A stretch of DNA of 64,000 nt from Podarcis gaigeae. Taxonomy: Eukaryota. The notes under the pieces were generated by a model that made no database searches, had not been told where the DNA came from, and saw nothing but the letters and a program-made list of their open reading frames with translations. Shown one piece after another: positions 56,501 to 64,000 of the stretch (within the stretch, counting starts at the first letter, position 1; each line of letters opens with the position of its first letter). The stretch lies in the NCBI GenBank assembly GCA_964106915.2, contig OZ066918.1. The stretch is one strand, 5' to 3'. A program made the translations under genes and the position numbers.

Positions 56501-58712
56501 CTAATAATATTTGCCCATTACAGCTTCATATATTATTATATTATTTACTTTATCAACAATGGAATTATTGTGAACAGAACTGCGATACTTTTATAATTTC
56601 ATTCCACAAAGTGATGAGTAATCCTACCGTGAAGCTGTTGTTGACATTTTTAGTGCTGGATTCTGCCACGCTGGCATCTGTCAGATCCACCTCATCAAAA
56701 ATGATTGACTGGGAAAAGGAAAAATAAATGTAAAACTTCAATTAGGTTGTTTGTTTATTTCATAACTGTTACAAATCATATATATATAATGAAGGGTTAA
56801 AAGAACTGCCTCTGGTGGTTGGTGCTGGCGAAGAATAAGATAGATTCTGCAAGACAAACAATCGGAGCTTCCTCAAAATCCTGCATGGTGTGTGTGGATG
56901 AGGGCAAGGCGAAGAATTTGCACAGCATCTCCCATAGAGGCAACCTATAACACTCCATTTCCCTGTCAAGCCACTGCCGTATGGGGAATTCCGGACATGA
57001 CTCCTGCACTTCCCAAATTGCACAGTGAAGGTGCACCTTTTTACCCTGACCTCTGACCTCATTATAAATATAGTTTTAAACTGATTTTAATATTGCATTT
57101 TTAAGTAGCCGTAACCCACCCTGGGACCCTGTGGTGAATGGTGGGCACGAAATTGAAGAAATAACTATTCATTATTCCACAGGTACTCCAGAAATAAGCA
57201 TCTGCCAGATGCTTTTAAGTACAAAGAAGCCCGTTGATTAAAATTAAATTAAATTGGCTATGTAATTTTTGATCTGGGGGCATTATAGGAGATTAGGAGA
57301 TGTCTATTTCAAGCATGGGGAGCCTCCACCCCATGGGTCAAATTAGGCCTGGCAAGCATCCTGATTTGGCCTGTGAGGCCGTATTCTCAAAGGCACAATC
57401 ATCTGTTCCCCATTAGACATACATGATGTTAGGTGTGAGACAGGTAAAGACACAGCTGAAGTAGACCAATGGGGAGCCTTCAAATGTGCTCCTGACAGTT
57501 TGTTGGTAAGCAGGGTTTGCATTCAACACCTTTTAAATTTGGTGCCAAACACAAGCAGCCCTTGGTGCCAAACATGCAGGCAACCCCTACTTGCAAGCAG
57601 GGCTTCTTTGTAAACATGGCTTAAACTCAACCTGCATGTGCAAATGAACCTTTTCCCTTGCATCCTGGCTTGAACTTAAGTCACACTGCAAAGGAGAAGC
57701 AGGTGATCTGACATAACAGTAACATCAGGTGCTTGACAGGTGAGTCAATATGACCTACCAAGGGAGGGAGCAGGGAAAATCTCCTTCTGGCTGAATCCTA
57801 ATCCTCACCCTAATCCTCTGCTACTGAGGATCTCTGCTGAGAAGATAAAAGCAAGGGGCAGAAAATAAAACAAGAGAGAAAGCAGCAAAATGATCCTTGG
57901 GCTTGGTAATGGACACACTTGGTATACATAGTTTTGGCTGAGGCTCTTTTGAGTACTAACTTTCTCAGGGAAATCCATGTACAGTATATCAAGTGCTTTC
58001 ACTATCCAGTCACAAGAGACACCTATCCTTTCTGATCCTATGGGTGTTAGGATCAGTGTCAACCAATGTCATGTAGAAAAAAACTTTGGGGAGATCCAGC
58101 CCCCTTTAATATATGTAGAACTTCTACTACATATAGAAATGTGATGCCAGTTTTTATTATTTAATCATATCTTTGTAATAATTTTGGCATCAATGTTCTG
58201 CTCAGCGGTAAAGCATCTCTTTTGCATTCAGAAGGCACCAGGCTCAATCCCCAACATCTCCAAGTAGGTCTGAGAGAGACTTCATCTGCTGTCTGTCAGG
58301 GTAGACAACACAAAGCTAGATAGTCCAATGACTTGACTCTGTATAAGGCAGCTTCCTGTGTTTCTACCCCTCATGGACACAAAGAAAAACAATCTATCAG
58401 TACTTAAGTAAGGGATAACCAGTTCCTATTTTAGAATAGTTAATAGTTTTACCAAAGTAAAGCAACAATTATGAACTCCTGAGTAGCAGGTTTGTGAGCG
58501 TAAACACTCTTAGTAGCTAGTAACCGTTGTGCTGTAGTCATACAAACTGGATGATTCCTATTCCTTATTACCCTCCCATAATTTCATGGAGAGCCACATA
58601 CCTTTGCTGTTTTGGCATAGTATAGAGTTCGTCCTCGCAATTTGAAGTAACGTCTCTTCCAGCGCTGAAATGAGCTGGTCTGTTTCATCAGCATGCCCTC
58701 TTTTATAATAGT
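10727..58712 (-). CDS. DGKD: Diacylglycerol kinase delta, spliced CDS span (exons equivalent to human 2-30; 5' incomplete)
   Basis: 29 GT-AG exons with consistent phases, 3501 nt in total. PH (TIIKEG...YYAKTAK), two C1 domains, catalytic GGDGSVG and [10 protein letters not shown] motifs, accessory domain, and C-terminal SAM ([14 protein letters not shown]). Residues match delta as recalled, rather than eta or kappa. Confidence 0.97.
11728..12028 (-). mobile_element. CR1 3' fragment
   Basis: cataagaggagccaatggcccatctagtccagcatcctg, the reverse complement of a squamate CR1 3' end. Confidence 0.75.
12430..12560 (-). CDS. DGKD: DGKD exon 29 (SAM)
   Basis: 131 nt; [44 protein letters not shown]. 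Confidence 0.96.
13307..13347. repeat. (TC)n(CA)n microsatellite
   Basis: Seen directly. Confidence 0.95.
14352..14469 (-). CDS. DGKD: DGKD exon 28
   Basis: 118 nt; [39 protein letters not shown]; weak donor G|gtaccg, phase 1. Confidence 0.93.
14734..14853 (-). CDS. DGKD: DGKD exon 27
   Basis: 120 nt; [40 protein letters not shown]; tandem CAGCAG acceptor. Confidence 0.94.
15935..16027 (-). CDS. DGKD: DGKD exon 26
   Basis: 93 nt; [31 protein letters not shown]. Confidence 0.95.
16158..16269 (-). CDS. DGKD: DGKD exon 25
   Basis: 112 nt; [38 protein letters not shown]. Confidence 0.95.
16386..16537 (-). CDS. DGKD: DGKD exon 24
   Basis: 152 nt; [50 protein letters not shown]. Confidence 0.95.
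17137..17271 (-). CDS. DGKD: DGKD exon 23
   Basis: 135 nt; [45 protein letters not shown]. Confidence 0.96.
17630..18232 (+). mobile_element. Probable solo LTR (Gypsy-like); left boundary unresolved
   Basis: About 600-bp purine-rich block, AATAAA at 18164-18169, ends ...ctcctgaCA; no TSD identified. Confidence 0.6.
18238..18351 (-). CDS. DGKD: DGKD exon 22
   Basis: 114 nt; [38 protein letters not shown]. Confidence 0.96.
18954..19061 (-). CDS. DGKD: DGKD exon 21
   Basis: 108 nt; [36 protein letters not shown]. Confidence 0.96.
20046..20142 (-). CDS. DGKD: DGKD exon 20
   Basis: 97 nt; [32 protein letters not shown]. Confidence 0.96.
20698..20808 (-). CDS. DGKD: DGKD exon 19 (accessory domain start)
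   Basis: 111 nt; [36 protein letters not shown]. Confidence 0.96.
21058..21188 (+). mobile_element. tRNA(Ile)-derived SINE with CR1-like tail
   Basis: tagctcagttggttagag...ggtttgatccccgtatggg followed by cctgcattgcagg...ctatgattcta. Confidence 0.75.
21337..21700 (+). mobile_element. Sauria SINE (young, CpG-rich)
   Basis: Full head and tail; TSD tatttgtgaag. Confidence 0.93.
22287..22383 (-). CDS. DGKD: DGKD exon 18
   Basis: 97 nt; [33 protein letters not shown]. Confidence 0.95.
23660..23890 (+). mobile_element. L2-like LINE 3' end
   Basis: ggccttttctgcagtggctccc...ctgccctgtgatc...gaagggcggtata; paralogous to 45110-45400. Confidence 0.65.
24148..24276 (-). CDS. DGKD: DGKD exon 17
   Basis: 129 nt; [43 protein letters not shown]. 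Confidence 0.94.
25357..25518 (-). CDS. DGKD: DGKD exon 16
   Basis: 162 nt, phase 1-1; [54 protein letters not shown]. Confidence 0.93.
26673..26946 (-). CDS. DGKD: DGKD exon 15
   Basis: 274 nt; [20 protein letters not shown]...[21 protein letters not shown]. Confidence 0.96.
26986..27019. repeat. (GT)n(GC)n alternating purine-pyrimidine tract
   Basis: Seen directly in the 127-nt intron 14. Confidence 0.95.
27074..27173 (-). CDS. DGKD: DGKD exon 14
   Basis: 100 nt; [33 protein letters not shown]. Confidence 0.95.
27266..27360 (-). CDS. DGKD: DGKD exon 13
   Basis: 95 nt; [32 protein letters not shown]; acceptor is aag. Confidence 0.95.
27777..27861 (-). CDS. DGKD: DGKD exon 12
   Basis: 85 nt; [29 protein letters not shown]. 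Confidence 0.95.
28537..28676 (-). CDS. DGKD: DGKD exon 11
   Basis: 140 nt; [46 protein letters not shown]. Confidence 0.96.
29871..29979 (-). CDS. DGKD: DGKD exon 10 (ATP-binding GGDG motif)
   Basis: 109 nt; [36 protein letters not shown]. Confidence 0.96.
30340..30530 (+). mobile_element. Old tRNA-derived SINE
   Basis: catagctaagtggttgagcatg...ataaggcagcttt; related to 58195-58360. Confidence 0.6.
30578..30826. mobile_element. Tc1/mariner-type MITE (possibly composite) with an internal 35-bp perfect hairpin
   Basis: TA-cagt...actg-TA ends; arms at 30672-30706 and 30715-30749. Confidence 0.75.
30940..31102 (-). CDS. DGKD: DGKD exon 9 (catalytic domain start)
   Basis: 163 nt; [55 protein letters not shown]. 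Confidence 0.96.
31863..31965 (-). CDS. DGKD: DGKD exon 8
   Basis: 103 nt; [34 protein letters not shown]. Confidence 0.96.
33367..33492 (-). CDS. DGKD: DGKD exon 7 (C1B)
   Basis: 126 nt; [42 protein letters not shown]. Confidence 0.96.
33872..33978 (-). CDS. DGKD: DGKD exon 6
   Basis: 107 nt; [36 protein letters not shown]. Confidence 0.96.
34285..34751. mobile_element. Young Tc1/mariner-superfamily MITE
   Basis: TIRs ccgtatttttcgccctataggacgcac / gtgcgtcctgtagggcgaaaaatacgg (1 mismatch), TA TSD, CpG-rich internal direct repeats. Confidence 0.92.
35434..35566 (-). CDS. DGKD: DGKD exon 5 (C1A)
   Basis: 133 nt; [44 protein letters not shown]. Confidence 0.96.
36909..37013 (-). CDS. DGKD: DGKD exon 4 (PH end)
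   Basis: 105 nt; [35 protein letters not shown]. Confidence 0.96.
37394..37530. mobile_element. Palindromic hAT-type MITE
   Basis: ccaaccttggttccccagatgttgttggattacaactcc / ggagttgtagtccagaaacacctggggaatcaaggttgg. Confidence 0.75.
39633..40790 (-). mobile_element. tRNA(Lys)-derived SINE with CR1 tail, split by a hAT insertion
   Basis: The head at 40720-40790 matches tRNA-Lys(CTT) (catgagactcttaatttcagggttgtgggtttgagccccacattgggc). The tail lies at 39633-39681 and 40688-40715. Confidence 0.85.
39682..40687. mobile_element. Non-autonomous hAT transposon with OC1/OposCharlie-like ends
   Basis: 16-bp TIR caggggtcctcaaact; 8-bp TSD atctagtc (39674-39681 and 40688-40695). Confidence 0.9.
41201..41236 (-). 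CDS. DGKD: Candidate internal first exon of DGKD ([12 protein letters not shown])
   Basis: ATG plus 11 codons, then CTC|gtgagt in phase 0, in frame with exon 4. Tandem CCAAT boxes lie upstream. Confidence 0.4.
41516..41560. repeat. (TAA)n microsatellite
   Basis: Seen directly. Confidence 0.95.
45110..45400 (+). mobile_element. L2-like LINE 3' end
   Basis: Paralogous to 23660-23890. Confidence 0.65.
47235..47614 (+). mobile_element. Sauria SINE
   Basis: gggatgcggatggcgctg head and cctttaccttt tail. Confidence 0.9.
48170..48536 (-). mobile_element. Sauria SINE
   Basis: Reverse-orientation head and tail; TSD aaacaaagcta. Confidence 0.92.
49551..49596. repeat. (GGAA)n microsatellite
   Basis: Seen directly. 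Confidence 0.95.
50930..51304 (-). mobile_element. Sauria SINE, left arm of a head-to-head composite
   Basis: aaaggtaaa tail at the left, head ...cagtgccacccgc at the right. Confidence 0.9.
51304..51508 (+). mobile_element. 5'-truncated Sauria SINE, right arm of the composite
   Basis: gcaagtagataaatagg...ggggtcctttacctt. Confidence 0.88.
51806..52018. mobile_element. Tc1/mariner (Tigger-like) MITE nested in an older palindromic element
   Basis: TA-cagtggtacctcgggtta...taacctgagataccactg-TA. Confidence 0.88.
54807..55067 (-). mobile_element. tRNA-derived squamate SINE with (CTC/CTT)n tail
   Basis: gagccagcatggtgtagtggttaagagc head on the minus strand; near-identical to 61539-61825. Confidence 0.85.
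56628..56708 (-). CDS. DGKD: DGKD exon 3 (PH)
   Basis: 81 nt; [27 protein letters not shown]; ag/gt boundaries. Confidence 0.96.
58195..58362 (+). mobile_element. Old tRNA-derived SINE
   Basis: gctcagcggtaaagcatc...ggctcaatcccc...gtataaggcagcttcct. Confidence 0.65.
58602..58712 (-). CDS. DGKD: DGKD exon 2 (PH domain start)
   Basis: ctag|ACT...AAG|gtatgt; 111 nt; [37 protein letters not shown]. Confidence 0.96.
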
Positions 58713-59185: not shown

Positions 59186-59744
59186 GAAGCATTTCTTTAA
59201 GAACAGCCAATTTTTCTGATTTTACCCCTCCCCAACCACAAAAAGAAGGAAAGTACTGGCTTTGATATCAATATTCTTTATTGTTTGACTGCCCTCTGCT
59301 GGAAATATCCAACACATTCATAAAACTGAGCTGCTGATCTTATCTATACCCAAGTGCAATAAACAACAGTCAAACACACAGTGCAGAGATTCCTTTCCTG
59401 TGTGAGAGAGATATTATCTTGGTGTGAGGATACAATTCTTCAAACTAGTCAAGGTGATCTTATCAAGCTTTGATGAAGATACAGGAAACATTTTAAGAAA
59501 AACCTCAGTGTCTGAAGTCAGAGCTCTGTCCTGTCCAATTACGGCTCTGATCTCACCTGTTTGACTAAAGTGAGCACACAGCAGCCTGTCTCCTGTAAAG
59601 CTATCAGCATCTGACTACCACAGGAAATGGTCTGCATATTTAAGGGAGTGTGGAGGGCAGTAATAAAAAGACAGGAATAATCCTTCCAGCTTTTATATTT
59701 GGTTTGTTTTTTTTCAGATACTCTTGGCTCTGACTCACTGCTTA

Positions 59745-59775: not shown

Positions 59776-61538
59776 CCATTTCCCAAGGCTAAAGTGCCAA
59801 GTCTGTCTACACACAGTTCTGGACATTTTCTCACTGCTCCACATCTAGCCCCACACACTATCATTCACATAATATGCATATCCAGGCTACAAGGCTATGT
59901 TTAGCTGACATTCATTTAGTTCCTCTTTATGATACACATTTGTTAGCCCAGCTGAAGAACATAATAAATTCCAAAAGATACATTAAAATGCTACCAACAC
60001 AGAATCTTAACAATAACTGAAGGACTACAAAACGAAAGCAAAGGTTAGTGCTTTAATTCACTATGAATACATAGCTCCTGCCAGTAGCAAGTGTCATAAT
60101 ATGGGGTTTTAATGCTCCATTTAATACTCCCCTTTTCCAAGGAAAGCACCATCTACAAGTACTTTAAGTAGTTCAATGTAGGAAAACATCATTAGGAGAA
60201 ACTGCTGCAGGGATATCATAAAGCTGTCTGTTAGGTCATTCTGTAACCAAAGGCTACAAAAGCAACATACTGTATATAGAAAACAGCAGTGTTCTTAAAT
60301 GTATTCACTGGAAGCCAGTACGACAATCAAGATACAATAATAACCTTGTTATACAGTCCCTACTAACTTAACATCCCACTTGAGTGATCTGAAAATTATT
60401 CAAGAGATATTAAAAGCTGAAGTACCTAAGTCTGCTGAAAATTCAGATTGCTCCCCAAAACCTTTGTTAGTTACTTGTTAGAAATCAAAAGTCAAGTTTT
60501 TTCCCACCTTGCAAAAGTTTTCCTTCCTAGCTGGTCAGAGGCAATTCCTGTTCACCATAGATTATTAGGCAAATGTCTATTTGCAATCATAGGATGTTAT
60601 AACTTAAAGTGCCTGCCCTCCCTAACAGTTGCAGATTTATTTATGCTTTTTCATATTTTCCTTTGCCAAACTGCTGTTCATCAGCAAAATGCTATATGCC
60701 AAAAAATGTCATCTTGGCCTAGCATGGAACTTCTCTCTTCAAAATCAGAATGACCTGAACTATCAAGTGAAATTGCGAGAGAAATAATTACTGTTTTCCT
60801 ATGACTTTCAGTGAGATTCAACAAATATACAGTGAGGAAATAGGAAAGGTTTGGTACAACACACTCACCACACACTTTACAGAGAAAAATACAAAACAAT
60901 TTGCAGACAAGTAAATTCTGAAATAATATAGGAAAATAGAACCAATAATCTCTGGAGGATGGAATCACTCAATATTGGCACCTTGACTGTGGAATGCTCT
61001 CCTCTCACATATTTGACTAAGGTAAAAGTAAAGGTACCACACCAACCCAAATAGGTTTTCAGTGTCAGTTAACAACTCATTTATCCATCCAGCCTGTGGC
61101 TAAACTGGATGTGGAGCTGGGCAGCTTGCCCTCCTTGATTTACTGAACTACTCTATTTCATTATAATGCTATACTTTTATAAAGCACTATCCAACTAAGT
61201 CATACTCAGAGCAGTTCTGCTGAAATCAATGGATTTAAGTTCACTGATTTCAGTGACTCTACTTTGAATGTAACTAATGTTAGATATCAATCCTTGTGTA
61301 TTATGTATTTACTTTTATATTATAACCTGTTCTGGGATTATTTTAACAAAGAGTGGACAATATATTTTGTATAAATAAATAAAATCACTGGAGTCCTCAA
61401 AATGTTTTAGCATAATAATTGGGGTAAATAAATAAAGTGTATCAAAGCATGGTTTCCATACAGAAACGTTCTGCCTCCATCCCCCACAGCCTCAGGAATT
61501 GATACTTCAGGACCTCGCAAAGCAGAAATCCAAGAACT

Positions 61539-62963: not shown

Positions 62964-63128
62964 CTGTGCAAATGATGAGCACTCCTCCATCTCTTTTAAA
63001 GAATGCTCTTTCAAAGAAAACACCACCACCCAAAAAGGCTGCCAACATTCTTGTCCCCCAAAGTAAACCAATGCATTTTCCTGCATTAGACTATCTACAG
63101 GAACCTCATAGGTACACGACTTAAACAT
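62964..63128 (-). CDS. DGKD: Candidate alternative first or cassette coding exon of DGKD (55 aa)
   Basis: ATG-initiated ORF of exactly 165 nt ending at a consensus donor CAG|gtgagt in phase 0, matching exon 2. TATAAATA lies about 135 nt upstream. Confidence 0.6.
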
Positions 63129-63259
63129 GAAAGGCTAGCAAAAAAAAAAACAAAAAACCTGACATAGATGTTGGGCTGCTTCTCACACAACACAGATGCT
63201 GCTGGGGGAGAGAAAAAGCCTGTAGTTTACAGCTGCCCATCTCTGCAAGAGAGCTGCTT

Positions 63260-63270
63260 CTATTTATAGG
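63260..63270 (-). promoter_or_regulatory. Candidate TATA box overlapping a MEF2-type site (CCTATAAATAG)
   Basis: Motif match upstream of the candidate exon; a GC box (63302) and GATAAG (about 63319) are nearby. Confidence 0.4.
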
Positions 63271-64000
63271 CAGCCAGCTTAGTAAAGACTTTGGTGGGTT
63301 TGGGCGGAAAGGGCTTGAGATAAGATCAAGATGACTTTATAGCATGTTTTCTTTTTCAAGCATTGCTGCTTTTCTTTGGCTTGATGTTCACTTCCCAGCT
63401 AGCATATTGCTCAGTCCTTTTGATACTGGTGAATGCTTCTGAGCAATGAGATCTGATGAAATGGTAACCGTTGAAAGCAACGTGACATGTTCCTTATCCT
63501 CCCTTTACAATCCTTACAAGAACTTAGAATCTATCTTCAACATCTGGTCATGTATCGTTACGTGAACAGTGATCCATAGCAAATGGCTAAAGGGAGAAAT
63601 CTTACTCTGCCTCCTCACACAAAAATAAACTGTCTTATTATAGGAATTTATTCTTAAATCCCATAGCAACCAGTCAGTCATATGAAGCAATGATATTTTA
63701 ATTATCTGCATCATTACCGGGAATAAATGCATGTACCAGTCAACTAAAAGTTATAACAATTACCAGGAATTAATTTGGAATTCTATAACCTCACTTCCCT
63801 CCCAAAGGATGCAATGACTCCTTAAAAGAGGAATGAGTAGTTGCAAAGAGTTGTTCAAACTGCTTTCTTTCCCCTTGCTGGCAGCTGAGTGTCCTATGTG
63901 AACCAAAAGACAGAGGCTGCATGGGATTTGTGCCTTCTACCACTTCCTGACAATGCTCAGGATCTATGGTCGCTTCCTTTATTTTATTATTGCAGGTTCA

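Follow-up and report, generated by a model that had tools for sequence, protein, structure and literature searches.

Sakane et al. 2002 is said to be the source paper for mammalian DGK-delta1. The human delta1 and delta2 proteins are given as 1170 aa and 1214 aa, respectively (PMC12673472), and delta2 is described as carrying 52 proline-rich residues at its N-terminus (PMC4308931). By arithmetic on these published values, delta1 has eight residues of its own. A selective, PH-dependent recruitment of human delta1 to the membrane by phorbol ester is described (PMC12673472), and PH-dependent translocation of delta1 to the plasma membrane, induced by phorbol ester or glucose, is also reported in a review. 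DGK-delta is described as strongly expressed in skeletal muscle (PMC7555651). For human DGKD, 14 Ensembl transcripts are given, at least five of which are coding (PMC12673472).

Here, a candidate exon in DGKD intron 1 of the lizard Podarcis gaigeae is compared with these systems. A sequence-only reading of this DNA had proposed that the exon provides a new N-terminus of 55 aa and could double as an in-frame cassette.

Results

Structure of the DGKD locus

The window, i.e. the whole stretch of 64,000 nt that was analysed, corresponds to G000:C9:61380001-61444000; another 200 kb past the window end were also examined (264 kb in all). Using tblastn with six DGKD proteins, DGKD was located on the minus strand of the window, with about 30 exons from 58712 down to 10730. 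The PH exon, the C1 domains, the split catalytic domain and the SAM exons were collinear with the orthologues. The canonical delta2-type exon 1 lies at G000:C9:61455498-61455331 (flanking segment L003, 1498-1331), about 12 kb upstream of the candidate exon and 16.6 kb above exon 2. It is GC-rich, comprises 56 codons and ends in KVSTSGQIRQK/gtgagc, and a comparison by eye found its peptide nearly identical to that of Podarcis muralis X4 (P0135). The resulting intron 1 of 16,618 nt contains the candidate exon (Table 1). Exon 2 opens with ttctag/ACT ATT ATA AAA in phase 0. The TAG of this acceptor (58715-58713) is in frame and rules out, for this genome, an N-terminus encoded by a 5' extension of exon 2.

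Table 1 Features of the candidate exon, its surroundings and its predicted splice partner, as positions in the window
Feature	Position	Strand	Evidence
DNA common with Varanus	63347..63481	-	N-terminus of KAF7254194.1 (P0005), 44% identity, E 8e-7
GC-box (63307-63302) and GATA-like motif (63324-63318), both located 5' of the TATA-like element	63302..63324	-	predicted function
CTATAAATAG, overlapping TATA-like and MEF2-like decamer	63260..63269	-	motif match, predicted function
Acceptor-like T-rich tract and TAG (putative); the TAG is the in-frame stop bounding the ORF	63135..63158	-	rank 6 of 623 YAG sites by pyrimidine count
Open stretch of 48 codons ahead of the conserved ATG; contains two weak in-frame ATGs (63128 and 63086)	62991..63134	-	open frame, intron-like score
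Conserved coding core MEECSSFAQ, nine codons, ATG 62990, donor CAG/gtgagt	62964..62990	-	match to bird isoform starts
DGKD exon 2, start of the PH domain, predicted splice partner	58602..58712	-	100% identity to bird and Varanus DGKD proteins

Several other elements were observed at the locus. Two likely repeat fragments lie on the minus strand of intron 1, at about 59180-58730 and 61830-61540. The former, just above exon 2, is presumably a CR1-like 3' end and the latter presumably SINE-like, closed by a (GAA)n(GAG)n tandem tract. A second element of intron 1 shared with birds, at 59864-59704 on the minus strand, aligns with the N-termini of the parrot UniRef entries P0013 and P0014 (E 5e-7 and 2e-5), and the white-eye model P0019 carries the same peptide. 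In the lizard, a (CTGG)8 repeat shifts its frame relative to the bird peptide, and a 96-codon ORF from the ATG at 59844 reaches a donor-like CAG/gtgaga at 59557. This element could represent either an enhancer or a further alternative first exon. The N-terminus of the stork protein KAM7108193.1 (P0018) aligns at about 7850-7780 of segment L003 on the minus strand (59%, E 0.003, with a stop), 6.3 kb upstream of the canonical exon 1, and possibly marks a further upstream exon. Five lizard and bird RefSeq isoforms (P0127, P0134, P0138, P0139 and P0141) start at the exon-2 methionine (MLMKQ), which implies either further non-coding first exons or the absence of exon 1 from those assemblies. Just downstream of DGKD, a vitamin K-dependent protein C-like exon was found at 1191-985 on the minus strand, with 79% identity to the Pelodiscus protein P0157. 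This exon is also matched by the C-terminal part of P0131, a DGKD model of 1839 aa from Crotalus adamanteus. The model looks like a fusion of DGKD and a protein C-like gene, which would account for mixed protein clusters.

The candidate exon and its conserved core

The minus-strand stretch 63134-62964 is open throughout and gives the translation PFMFKSCTYEVPVDSLMQENALVYFGGQECWQPFWVVVFSLKEHSLKEMEECSSFAQ, which comprises 57 codons, or 55 aa from the ATG at 63128. The splice sites had been read correctly: the donor CAG/gtgagt at 62964 is in phase 0 and 4,251 nt before exon 2, and together with the acceptor-like site at 63134 it defines a frame-preserving unit of 171 nt. The length of the ORF is unremarkable. 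Of the 47 GTRAG sites in intron 1, three are preceded by an in-frame ATG at a distance of 55 codons or more, one of them as a mere extension of the canonical exon 1, and 7.8% of 144-nt intronic segments contain no stop in a given frame. At the sensitivity of the search, both the DNA and the peptide of the exon are single-copy in the genome (second match E 0.5, with stops), and a transposon origin is therefore not favoured.

Because searches with the 55-aa peptide gave no real homologue, DGKD and DGKH proteins were collected through exon 2 instead (best 120 of 1600 and best 120 of 1346), with at most 15 members considered per cluster. Among the cluster members listed, at least five distinct full-length bird DGKD proteins have a 9-aa MEEC peptide joined directly to exon 2. 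This set covers at least eight NCBI accessions from at least seven named species (Corapipo, Neopelma, Lagopus, Tympanuchus, Cyanistes, Porphyrio and Spheniscus), e.g. XP_027517776.1 (Corapipo altera X3), XP_042741319.1 (Lagopus leucura X3), XP_023789087.1 (Cyanistes caeruleus X2) and KAM6257999.1 (Porphyrio hochstetteri), all of which are computed annotations and were compared at the protein level. The bird isoforms start with MEECRSCAE, MEECTACAE, MEECMSCAE or MEECTSCAE, to which the lizard MEECSSFAQ is identical at five to six of nine positions. Nine residues from the methionine to the junction, an invariant MEEC and Ala8, and the phase-0 join to exon 2 are shared, whereas in the lizard Phe stands in place of the second Cys and Gln in place of the last Glu, and another 46-48 open codons precede the core. 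The lizard exon thus has the layout of a bird MEEC-type exon, with an ATG nine codons before a phase-0 donor, a peptide of the form MEEC..xA. and a location between exons 1 and 2. Two kiwi UniRef models start with MEACRSCAK followed by V-S, equal to a read-through of GTG AGT in the lizard. Squamate and turtle proteins with a MEEC start were absent among the members listed (15 of 176 in one cluster and 15 of 103 in another).

The match at 62990 stands out from its surroundings. MEECSSFAQ has the highest bird-peptide score among the 10,225 stop-free 9-mers of intron 1, and its score of 30.3 is also the highest on both strands of the 264 kb, followed by 29.3 for a site on the opposite strand without an ATG or donor. 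When only sites combining an ATG, nine codons and a GT were considered (n=19 in intron 1), the runner-up reached 8.2. Scored against the five distinct bird peptides, 1000 Markov resamples of the intron all stayed below MEECSSFAQ (best 27.8 vs 29.8). This conservation supports the donor at 62964 and the last ATG at 62990 as real, and the candidate exon is likely the orthologue of the exon of the bird isoforms, judging by nine residues and position.

The exon could instead be unused in the lizard, or the bird match could stem from non-coding or splice-enhancer DNA that is conserved without being translated. Splice enhancers are purine-rich, as is the ATG GAG GAG stretch, and there are many upstream ATGs, which would both fit such an explanation. 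However, the ATG, the length, the frame and the donor have all been retained between lizard and birds, and the upstream DNA is conserved with Varanus, which makes a relic or a chance match highly improbable.

MEGCSFCFQ starts in marsupial UniRef models (Sarcophilus) have M, E and two Cys in common with the bird peptide but were not counted, since several models share residues upstream and the start therefore looks like intron read-through before exon 2. A single match, without similarity to the locus, came from a degenerate-pattern scan for host DNA among metagenome contigs.

Coding potential of the upstream codons

The 46-48 codons upstream of the core behaved differently from it. For the proposed 55-aa peptide, a search of 5.8 billion sequences gave one candidate and none at E<=1, which is weak evidence by the tool's own note; a search of 1.84 billion representatives gave two matches, both unrelated repeat proteins, and Pfam gave nothing meaningful. 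The first 200 aa of the other 396 proteins compared share no 5-mer with the upstream 46 residues. In a 3-periodic coding model, trained on 25 exon cores of DGKD and therefore on 3 kb only, the upstream 48 codons scored -0.112 per codon, whereas all 25 true exon cores scored at least -0.044 in leave-one-out evaluation. With 38 of 67 stop-free intronic stretches scoring at least as high, the upstream codons are at the level of the intronic median. The only in-frame ATG in the strong context G-3/G+4 is the one at 62990. The context of the ATG at 63128 is T-3/T+4, and two uORFs, from 63240 and 63165, overlap this ATG.

These results bear on the claim that the main product starts at 63128 and has a functional N-terminus of 55 aa, with the hydrophobic patch WQPFWVVVF binding a membrane or a partner. 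This ATG is the first in-frame one past the TATA-like element, its frame is open, and a start of 46 aa is annotated in the equivalent exon of the gar. Against this, its context is weak and two uORFs overlap it, the bird isoforms begin at the last methionine, and the upstream 46 residues match no retrieved protein and score like intron. A functional 55-aa N-terminus is therefore very unlikely, and the case for the patch falls with it. The stretch 62991-63134 is likely 5' UTR and possibly an N-terminal extension or the body of a cassette. Minor extended products of 55 aa or 41 aa may arise from the weak upstream ATGs in the lizard lineage, but they are probably not under selection.

Cassette use and comparison with fishes

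The possible dual use of the exon was assessed separately. In this scenario, the 171-nt unit is ancient and serves both as a first exon with its own promoter and as an in-frame cassette between exons 1 and 2, where it would add 57 aa of free sequence as a spacer ahead of the PH domain. The unit has an acceptor, a donor, a length divisible by three, an open frame and phase 0 at both ends. Its acceptor is among the ten strong ones of the 623 intronic YAG sites, is the most T-rich of them, and alone opens a stop-free, frame-preserving phase-0 exon. In addition, the alligator-gar (Atractosteus) model MBN3314679.1 (P0318) has a 57-aa insert at the same junction, with a methionine at position 49 of 57 as in the lizard, and the spotted-gar (Lepisosteus) RefSeq isoforms X1, X3 and X5 begin inside the same gar peptide with a 46-aa head ending in MDLRSCSGE. 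Long starts are thus annotated as well, from what is apparently the same exon. Compared with the lizard peptide, the gar peptide ranked first of 180 N-termini, narrowly (29 vs 27 for unrelated ones).

Nevertheless, several observations argue against this scenario. The gar and lizard 57-mers were compared with three matrices, locally and globally, and their similarity was never significant (local p 0.07; upstream 48 vs 48 residues p 0.26; BLASTP E 0.58). The length match was noticed post hoc in a single gene model, and the upstream codons score like intron. Among 175 proteins with exons 1 and 2, an insert of more than 1 aa is absent in 173; the two exceptions, a 96-aa insert in a Muraenolepis model and the 57-aa insert of the alligator gar, are both single gene models and neither is from a sauropsid. 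Cassette use is therefore possible but unproven, and we consider the dual role as a whole unlikely.

Short alternative starts of the form M-E/D...Q/E before exon 2 were also found in fish RefSeq isoforms. Teleost heads comprise 7-9 aa, such as MDMELYSDQ and MELCSDQ in catfish, METHSEQ and METFSEQ in characiforms, and MEALSKQ in Alosa. The gar and teleost N-termini resemble the lizard one in their junction, their phase and a methionine 7-9 residues before exon 2; in sequence they show no significant resemblance to the lizard peptide, and the homology is positional and unproven. The match of the gar insert in length, phase and methionine position, noted post hoc in one gene model, suggests an origin of the exon before ray-finned fishes and tetrapods diverged. 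That a dual-use exon of 171 nt kept its length, phase and methionine position from gar to lizard for more than 400 million years while its amino acids drifted is a stronger claim, and a decidedly unlikely one.

Promoter-like region

The sequence-only reading had placed a TATA/MEF2-like decamer, a GC box, a GATA motif and an E-box upstream of the exon. The first three are present, the decamer being assigned by the TATA and MEF2 consensus motifs, but the E-box CAGCTG at 63235-63230 lies downstream of the TATA-like element and not upstream. The window has four MEF2-type decamers, compared with an expectation of 1.7 +/- 1.2, and 8 of 100 shuffles reach four; taken alone, the motif is thus not enriched. 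The alignment with the Varanus protein runs into a stop in the P. gaigeae genome where the match ends, and this block is likely conserved promoter or enhancer sequence. A second TATA-like element, TATAAAG at 63341-63335 on the minus strand, is located 73 nt upstream of the first and just past the Varanus-matching block; it could mark an alternative TSS, which would include the strong uORF ATG at 63240.

Expression of the exon in muscle is plausible, given these motifs and the skeletal-muscle expression of DGK-delta. DGKD goes unmentioned in the main text of a preprint on CAGE in human muscle. In three runs of another organism, guessed to be RNA, 0.22-0.27 of the words were found, and three more runs gave lower values; this is a lead only.

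Discussion

The bird-isoform match of MEECSSFAQ in combination with the phase-0 donor, at a site separate from the canonical exon 1, points to an old alternative first coding exon of DGKD. We consider it probable that this exon is driven by the TATA/MEF2-like promoter, is spliced to exon 2 and starts at 62990. As proposed, intron 1 thus appears to provide a third DGKD N-terminus distinct from that of the delta2-type exon 1, with a conserved donor and last ATG. Its claimed novelty did not hold, as RefSeq and GenBank isoforms of birds already carry the exon. It is likely a real, conserved exon with a conserved product of nine amino acids. Neither a paper on a MEEC-type exon nor the name DGKdelta3 was found in the open literature searched.

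In the proposed mechanism, the internal promoter (TATA/MEF2-like decamer, GC box and GATA-like motif) would initiate a transcript at a predicted TSS near 63235-63240, and the first exon ending at 62964 would be joined to exon 2 by splicing. Scanning ribosomes would skip the weak ATGs and initiate at 62990, thereby exchanging the 56-aa Ala/Pro/acidic delta2 leader for nine residues. A TSS near 63238 would place up to seven ATGs before 62990, and an out-of-frame ORF from 63048 (A-3) overlaps this ATG, both of which would lower its use. The short form may therefore be poorly translated, or the true TSS may be nearer to 62990. With its Met-Glu start, the product would be expected to undergo N-acetylation, and Cys4 of MEECSSFAQ is a potential S-acylation site.

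If these predictions hold, non-mammalian vertebrates likely use a dedicated internal promoter to produce a DGK-delta with a short head. This is a modest result for gene evolution and annotation, in which 62990 is the candidate start codon and the hydrophobic patch no longer plays a part. It would gain weight if the gar-lizard length match proved to reflect a conserved cassette, or if a human counterpart were found among the less-studied DGKD transcripts. Were the dual use true, a muscle-type first exon and a cassette spacer would together form a third, undescribed membrane-targeting switch of vertebrate DGK-delta, which would predate mammalian delta1.

The short first exon is best compared with the two mammalian forms, whose delta1/delta2 switch it parallels with a different exon. 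Relative to DGK-delta2, it belongs to the same gene and uses the same exon-2 acceptor in phase 0, with the canonical exon 1 being separate. Like mammalian delta1, it places a short N-terminus directly before the PH domain in exchange for the Pro-rich delta2 leader. By analogy with delta1, the MEEC form may be the stimulus-recruited one, its exposed PH domain mediating recruitment to the plasma membrane upon stimulation. Unlike delta1, whose own peptide has 8 aa, the 9-aa lizard peptide is encoded by a separate exon 4.25 kb above exon 2, and a 5' extension of the lizard exon 2 is blocked by the in-frame TAG. The mammal-type read-through P0092 (...MFLYFQ/TIIKEG) passes from the intron into exon 2, and its residues before exon 2, which we take to resemble delta1, suggest that delta1 derives from DNA contiguous with exon 2. 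Since the lizard codon at this position is the acceptor TAG, the MEEC form is probably an analogue and not an orthologue of mammalian delta1.
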